Position numbers and translations under genes: made by a program. 5,125 nt of DNA from a virus (taxonomy: Duplodnaviria > Heunggongvirae > Uroviricota > Caudoviricetes): IMG/VR virus record IMGVR_UViG_2690316166_000021; one strand, 5' to 3'. Under the pieces are notes generated by a model that was given only the letters and a program-made list of their open reading frames with translations, was not told where the DNA came from and did not search any database. How positions within the stretch are numbered: the stretch's first letter is position 1; every line of letters starts with the position of its first letter. Positions 57-540 of the stretch are shown piece by piece.

Positions 57-150
57 GGTTCTTTCCACCATCTGAAAAATAATTCTACATTCAAAAATAT
101 CATTTATACTTTTCAGAACATCACCAGCAAGGCATAAACAAGGAAACTAA

Positions 151-486
151 ATGAAGTGGATTGTGATTGATACAGTTATCCAGCCATCATGCGGAATATC
201 TTTTTCAGTCATATGGAGTAAAATAAAATTAATAATCTGGTATCAATCGGATGCTTTCTTACCTCCTGAAAGTATATTTACACTGACTCACACAGGCATC
301 ATGCTCAATAACAAAGTGCTACCTGTAACCATTTACAACGTAGTACCATTCAATAAAACATTCTGGAATTCAATCAAAAATAGCCAGGAATGCCCTACAA
401 ATACAGATAACGTATTGAATGAATGCTTTAATAACCGTTGCACTCTGCAAATATGTCCTTATGGACTAAAACAACAAAGTCCATAA
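151..486 (+). CDS. hypothetical protein, 111 aa, in AT-rich island; opposite orientation to the Q/late transcription direction
   Basis: ATG 151 preceded by AAGGA (140..144) with 6-nt spacer; stop TAA 484..486. A 111-codon open frame in visibly AT-rich DNA is unlikely by chance because stop codons are AT-rich. Composition (W/C/N/I-rich) is unusual and no homolog is recognised. Confidence 0.4.
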
Positions 487-516
487 GGAGTTTACTCACA
501 TCTGACAAAATCAATA

Positions 517-540
517 TAAACAGCCCCTCCGGAGAGGGGC
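517..540 (-). terminator. terminator-like hairpin (copy A of repeat): 7-bp GC stem GCCCCUC/GAGGGGC, tetraloop, then interrupted U-rich tail
   Basis: Minus-strand reading of 540..523 gives GCCCCTCTCCGGAGGGGC followed by TGTTTATATTGATTTTG; weaker U-tract than copy B. Confidence 0.35.

Follow-up and report, generated by a model that had tools for sequence, protein, structure and literature searches.

The DNA analysed here (the window; 5,125 nt of IMG/VR record IMGVR_UViG_2690316166_000021, Caudoviricetes) covers the late-regulatory region of a lambdoid prophage, which is read on the minus strand of the window. Large parts of it are masked with N. The late antiterminator Q, put on the minus strand by the first-pass annotation, is found there at 4240-5061 and matches PF03589 (Antiterm; 6e-55) and phrog_127 (1e-110). 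At the opposite end, positions 1-56 (minus strand) hold the 5′ end of a late-region DUF1737 gene (ATG at 56-54), which was assigned from matching loci and PF08410 and forms the left boundary of an island at 57-520 (no strand assigned). Within this island, on the plus strand and thus opposite to Q, lies a 111-residue open reading frame (151-486) that we identify as iraL, the gene of an IraM-family RssB anti-adaptor. The right boundary is set by copy A of an STnc100-family sRNA gene.

The island had been proposed to be AT-rich with GC-richer flanks, and this is borne out by its GC content of 33.4% (155 of 464 nt) versus 49.6% for the unmasked remainder of the window (binomial p 2e-12, z −7.0), with the left 56 nt at 53.6% and copy A at 64.3%. 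When the window was scanned in 200-nt sliding windows, those with the lowest GC (30.5%) all started within 1-520, the lowest value elsewhere being 40.5%. Moreover, third-position GC (GC3) is 0.33 in iraL versus 0.48 in Q. Comparison with island-free phages places the borders independently of composition. In Stx2a phage LC645409, which matches window positions 1-57 and 522-604, the homology ends at 57 and restarts at 522, with unrelated DNA in between, and alignment with island-free Stx2a phages gives edges of 58 and 521, within one or two bases of those first suggested.

Copy A (519-604, minus strand) comprises the 3′ 86 nt of an STnc100-family gene and is 99% identical to 897-982, a segment of the complete STnc100 gene (copy B) at 889-1079 on the same strand. 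The latter matches RF02076 over model positions 1-206 at 136.3 bits (gathering score 47), while the Rfam match at copy A (518-543) is weak; the remainder of the copy-A element would lie in a masked stretch. Related to PasD, STnc100 is an sRNA already known from prophages (bioRxiv 10.64898/2026.05.13.724894). A terminator scan calls the copy-A hairpin (542-521), with TTTATATTGA after it, an intrinsic terminator, and does so for the minus strand only. The island thus ends at this hairpin in a convergent arrangement, as had been claimed. The second STnc100 3′ end is 378 bp away in the window, and these 378 bp are extra relative to the retrieved relatives. Here, because E. coli strain 2D carries two tandem full STnc100 genes at the equivalent place (locus L004, 4569-4778 and 5056-5246), the remainder of a second sRNA gene may be concealed in the masked positions 605-701.

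Between copy B and Q, the unmasked positions 3886-3951 lie in a 65-aa hypothetical gene found just downstream of Q in related prophages (locus L018), where it is followed by a DNA methyltransferase gene, tRNA-Ile/Arg/Arg, a TerB-family gene, and DUF3927. The masked positions 1443-3885 and 3952-4050 are probably ordinary late-region cargo. Also just downstream of Q, at 4133-4165, a GC-rich hairpin with a run of T after it (CAACCCGCCGCCGAGCGGGTTTTTT, minus strand) has a position that fits a putative late terminator tR′ overridden by Q antitermination.

The first-pass annotation had described a 111-aa plus-strand frame with a good ribosome-binding site and had considered its product unrecognisable. 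The frame itself stands (ATG start, with the Shine-Dalgarno sequence AAGGAA at 141-146, 5 nt before the ATG), but the protein proves to be recognisable as IraL. It scores 162 bits (cutoff 121; E 4.7e-48) with the NCBIfam profile NF007393 (“anti-adapter protein IraM”), and this alignment is full length, placing residues 1-110 on positions 1-113 of the 114 in the profile. In pairwise comparison, 110 of 111 residues (99%) are identical to IraL of CFT073 (gene at NC_004431 1343465-1343800), and identity to K-12 IraM is 61% over the whole length (E 4e-52). A search against the PDB gave 8TWD chain A, which is IraM 1-78 bound to RssB, over residues 1-78 (E 6.3e-31). Moreover, the window protein displays the traits of the IraL subtype, namely the 111-aa length, the QQSP tail, and the near-identity to CFT073 IraL. 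Judged by these matches, the island frame encodes IraL, an already characterised prophage anti-adaptor. Less specific results came from other collections: PHROGs returned only the unnamed family phrog_4407, and a Pfam-A hmmscan gave no significant family, a Nairovirus NSm match being dismissed as chance level (E 0.056, below cutoff). A precomputed contig-index annotation labels the exact window protein as PF11183 (PmrD), whereas our Pfam-A hmmscan found no PmrD match at E≤1; this disagreement may reflect a difference in Pfam versions or thresholds.

The single residue that differs from CFT073 IraL is at position 74 (L74S), and Leu74 is conserved across all five comparator proteins. A reading of L74S as a lesion was nonetheless rejected, as the exact window protein is widespread and occurs in long-form loci, by which we mean those that retain the upstream segment missing from the window (see below). 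With 4,016 blocks of a public collection listing this exact protein, L74S is a common allele. One of its carriers is HE616528, which we take to be S. sonnei 53G and in which iraL is found in ordinary long-form loci.

In the IraM structure, 14 residues contact RssB (PMC10844676). Of these, 10 are identical in the window protein and four are conservatively replaced (T13S, L75I, H63N, and I64V), with the same four changes also found in CFT073 IraL. Contact cluster I (I4, I6, W22, K26, and I42) is identical to that of IraM, while cluster II in the window protein consists of S13, C14, F18, I75, and W30, and cluster III of I61, Y62, N63, and V64. Toward the C-terminal end, four cysteines (C81, C92, C97, and C102; window 391-456, codons 81-102) are invariant in IraL, the Stx-phage type, and K-12 IraM. 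The tail of the protein was cut away for crystal structure PDB 8TWD and has been described as flexible. Conceivably, these cysteines form a putative metal or disulfide site.

With regard to its closest known relative, the IraL of CFT073 and S. sonnei (YcgW, c1429; Hryckowian et al. 2014, PMC4045071), the window copy shares the 5′ UTR, the −10 hexamer, and the sequence at the mapped start site, as well as the 3′ hairpin, the orientation, and the prophage slot (STnc100/DUF3927 to DUF1737/holin). It is set apart by L74S, by the 166 bp missing upstream, and by the second STnc100 3′ end 378 bp further on. IraL (c1429) interacts and co-purifies with RssB and prolongs the half-life of RpoS; in CFT073, RpoS keeps only half of its log-phase half-life once iraL is deleted, and in Shigella sonnei the deletion leads to lower log-phase RpoS (PMC4045071). 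Additionally, iraL mRNA is reportedly higher at 37 °C than at 23 °C, and IraL levels reportedly go up in a fur mutant (PMC12890032, PMC7157518). K-12 IraM (YcgW/ElbA, b1160), the Mg2+-starvation anti-adaptor, also has the four C-terminal cysteines, and its gene, like the island, is AT-rich and adjoins prophage DNA (e14). It nevertheless represents a different subtype, with an upstream region unrelated to that of iraL and a protein that stops at CPYGLK, the QQSP extension and the 12-bp hairpin both being absent. Moreover, IraM reportedly engages both domains of RssB, as opposed to the N-terminal domain only for IraL in a two-hybrid assay (PMC4045071). IraP and IraD share with IraL the target and the outcome, that is, RssB inhibition and RpoS stabilisation, but are unrelated in sequence and interact with RssB in other modes (PMC4045071; PMC3877760).

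At the level of the coding sequence, we compared three subtypes (iraL, the Stx-phage type, and K-12 iraM), which share only 69-77% nucleotide identity. The pairwise dN/dS values are 0.10-0.17, and the differences concentrate at third codon positions (e.g., 27/18/55 by position). An intact 111-aa frame is found in all 70 related loci with a complete gene, which together encode 10 protein variants; 10 of the 70 loci had been selected for an exact match to the protein, which makes them non-independent when alleles are counted. The pattern of substitution points to purifying selection on the IraL protein, and with the frame retained in 70/70 loci, the moron reading of the first-pass annotation survives this comparison.

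The slot occupied by the gene is also shared. CFT073 iraL is located on the potB island, which is a prophage (PMC4045071), and the order there (Q, tRNAs, DUF3927, STnc100, iraL on the opposite strand, DUF1737, and holin) is matched by the window. An antisense iraL beside DUF1737 is also found in strain 203740, in phage 640R1, and in loci retrieved for carrying the exact window protein. In contrast to these flanks, the filling varies: 111 phage records carry the flanks and only four of them the island, LC645409 being among the island-free. Of 5,426 complete E. coli genomes, 1,442 have the island, and PGAP labels the gene as IraM in over 1,400 complete genomes of this species. Conserved flanks with a variable filling are consistent with cassette exchange by homologous recombination. 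Taken together, the deviant base composition, the presence or absence between conserved flanks, the start site mapped in CFT073 (PMC4045071), and the purifying selection support the earlier claim that the island is a horizontally acquired moron-type gene. As with the classical lambdoid morons (lambda bor and lom), this is an extra gene with deviant composition, a promoter that in CFT073 is its own, presence/absence variation, and a presumed benefit to the host. Unlike bor and lom, iraL points against the late operon, and a clean plus-strand intrinsic terminator is not evident.

For the core promoter, we relied on the 5′-RACE sequence of CFT073 iraL, which is ACATCACCAGCAAGGCATAAACAAGGAAACCA (PMC4045071). 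It aligns to window positions 118-149 with one mismatch, and this places the start site at 118, followed by a 33-nt 5′ UTR (118-150, plus strand) whose folding is not significant (z +0.9). A predicted −10 hexamer, TATACT (105-110, plus strand; 5/6 to consensus), lies at −13 to −8 of the start site and is identical in CFT073, and a putative −35-like hexamer, TCTACA (84-89, plus strand), was located from its position relative to the mapped start. A sigma-70 consensus scan of the window with a spacer range of 16-18 nt gave no promoter upstream of the frame; however, the long-form iraL spacer is 15 nt, outside that range, and the scan is thus uninformative on the iraL promoter. A site called inside the frame (202-229) was dismissed as no more than the shuffled expectation. 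The construct used for iraL complementation spanned −100 to +33 (PMC4045071).

Upstream of this core, the window departs from every related locus compared. Alignment to CFT073, strain 203740, and phage 640R1 shows it to be without 166 bp between positions 85 and 86, corresponding to −198 to −33 of the CFT073 iraL promoter, and only 32 bp of the native upstream sequence are left. The absent segment is A-rich with 28% GC. The breakpoint cuts through the likely −35 hexamer, taking away two of its bases, such that the TTTACA of the long form becomes the TCTACA of the window, while TTTACA, the 15-nt spacer, and TATACT are invariant in 70/70 long-form loci. All 70 comparison loci are long form, as are all the top E. 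coli matches. The upstream regulatory region of iraL is at least 96% identical among sequenced iraL strains (PMC4045071), and the window copy departs from this otherwise conserved feature of the subtype. At the breakpoint there is no flanking repeat and microhomology is limited to 1-2 nt, and the window flanks of the iraL region are 100% identical to many long-form genomes. A search with the junction (38-mer and 24-mer) found it absent from GTDB species-representative genomes, JGI metagenome contigs, and IMG/VR, with the matching long-form 24-mer as a positive control detected in 62 viral contigs. The junction was also found in 0/17 retrieved loci, and a megablast of a junction 40-mer against complete E. 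coli genomes gave none, a weak result with which the low-complexity filter may have interfered. Because this promoter deletion was seen in no other searched collection, expression of the window copy of iraL is uncertain.

At the 3′ side of iraL, a hairpin with a perfect 12-bp stem spans 456-489 (plus strand) and takes in the last codons (CPYGLK...SP) and the TAA. Here, 456-467 pairs with 478-489 around a 10-nt loop, with the stop codon (484-486) in the 3′ arm. The first-pass annotation had correctly noted a hairpin over the stop codon, but its size was underestimated as a 7-bp stem at 461-484. The predicted folding energy is −17.5 kcal/mol (z −4.3), with none of 200 shuffled sequences as stable, and the hairpin is identical in 62/70 related loci, two of the three variant sites retaining the pairing as G-U. 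Only a weak U-tract, GUUUACU, follows downstream, and our scan for terminators called no canonical one on the plus strand, the terminator-like sites being on the minus strand only. When the hairpin was sought in other subtypes, K-12 iraM was not significant (z −0.7), and the significant signal in phage 1717 was rejected as an equivalent because it stems from the STnc100 terminator; both genes have just short palindromes at this position. For these reasons, the 12-bp hairpin appears to be specific to iraL, where it may be a putative 3′-end or stability element.

Bringing these observations together, we consider it highly likely that a lambdoid prophage carries here its iraL cassette, a moron that encodes an RssB anti-adaptor and RpoS stabiliser and that in other strains has its own promoter. 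In this, the identity, slot, conservation, composition, and presence/absence of the gene come from the comparisons made here, and RssB binding, RpoS stabilisation, and the start site from the literature. As described for characterised copies, IraL would bind RssB and occlude its RpoS-binding face (PMC10844676; PMC4045071), and with RssB so blocked, RpoS would no longer be delivered to ClpXP and would be stabilised. Such stabilisation by IraL has been reported for CFT073 and S. sonnei even in exponential growth (PMC4045071). Other strains transcribe iraL from a sigma-70-type promoter that belongs to the gene itself and does not depend on the phage late promoter. In a lysogen, late transcription would presumably stop soon after its start, with iraL made from its own promoter, and upon induction Q-modified polymerase would cross iraL in antisense. 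Because its orientation opposes the Q-dependent late operon, iraL would behave as a moron expressed in lysogeny to the benefit of the host. When carried by a prophage, iraL increases RpoS in growing cells, and a link has been made between this gene and stress resistance in uropathogenic E. coli and Shigella.

It is the deletion that gives most room for other readings of this particular copy. Conceivably, iraL is intact here but silenced and decaying, the promoter deletion having abolished or greatly reduced its transcription and left a relic in the host. The removal of −198 to −33 along with the change from TTTACA to TCTACA fits such a loss, the more so as the invariance of the hexamer and spacer in the long-form loci suggests constraint, and a junction unique among the searched collections would make the event recent or private. 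On the other hand, the −10 hexamer, start site, UTR, Shine-Dalgarno sequence, and frame are all intact, TCTACA still matches the −35 consensus at 4/6 positions, and the coding sequence is without lesions, with L74S being a common allele. H-NS often binds to AT-rich DNA upstream of horizontally acquired genes. Loss of such DNA could equally de-repress iraL, and on balance we think a silenced copy possible, though not probable. A more prosaic explanation is that the 166-bp gap arose from faulty assembly or consensus calling in the source record, the true locus being long-form iraL. Flanks fully identical to many long-form genomes, a junction in no other searched sequence, and a missing segment of the A-rich, low-GC type prone to coverage drop-outs would all agree with this. 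Yet a clean deletion with so little microhomology and no flanking repeat is untypical of an assembler artefact, and other structural differences (the extra 378 bp and a different Q-proximal cargo, in which the window also differs from the retrieved relatives) point to a distinct prophage variant, which leads us to regard an error as rather unlikely.

Alternative functions for the island carry far less weight. A PmrD-like connector, acting on a response regulator other than RssB (e.g., PmrA), is suggested by the PmrD-like fold of IraM (PMC10844676) and by the precomputed PF11183 label, but the 99%-identical IraL binds RssB and prolongs the half-life of RpoS (PMC4045071), the RssB-contact residues are conserved, and neither the PDB search nor Pfam-A revealed any sequence similarity to PmrD chains, making this very improbable. 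We give just as little credence to the functional unit being the AT-rich DNA or its RNA, whether as an antisense RNA against the late transcripts or as an H-NS nucleation site, with the frame incidental. The antisense position relative to the late operon, the low GC, and the strong 3′ hairpin are what one would expect of it, but they are outweighed by dN/dS values of 0.10-0.17 with third-position differences across three subtypes at 69-77% nucleotide identity, by a 111-aa frame retained in every one of the 70 complete loci, and by genetic evidence for the protein (PMC4045071). The anti-adaptor cassette is thus the reading that we retain.

The gene itself is already known: iraL encodes a named and experimentally studied anti-adaptor, and the main value of the present identification lies in the correct label for a frame that had been flagged as unrecognisable and is in fact a known host-physiology gene. 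The new point, a modest one, is a natural iraL allele left with very little of its upstream regulatory DNA. Provided that the deletion is real, the allele offers a test of which promoter sequences set the levels of IraL and hence of log-phase RpoS. Along with the recurrent pairing of iraL-type genes with STnc100, it is a minor point worth recording.

With respect to that pairing, the antisense orientation and the convergent STnc100 partner recur across subtypes (iraL and the Stx-phage type). The IraM-like gene of Stx2c/Stx2a phages (phage 1717 gp43, YP_002274253) encodes a protein 72-74% identical to the window IraL and, likewise, is antisense in the Q-to-holin region and converges on STnc100. 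It differs from iraL in lying between stx2B (stx2cB in phage 1717) and an esterase gene rather than beside DUF1737, and in encoding a protein of 107 aa with two extra cysteines. A literature search found no experimental study of this Stx-phage IraM/IraL subtype. As a tentative idea, and one we would not expect to hold in full, an iraL-type gene and a convergent STnc100 could form a conserved two-gene module in which the fixed orientation against the Q-dependent late transcript makes the anti-adaptor lysogeny-specific, and in which, upon induction, late antisense read-through past the STnc100 terminator shuts IraL off and lowers RpoS during lytic growth; the 166-bp deletion would then rewire this switch, by either silencing or release from upstream control. 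In phage 1717 (locus L007), the two features are found at 4501-4824 (iraM-like gene) and 4835-5046 (STnc100).
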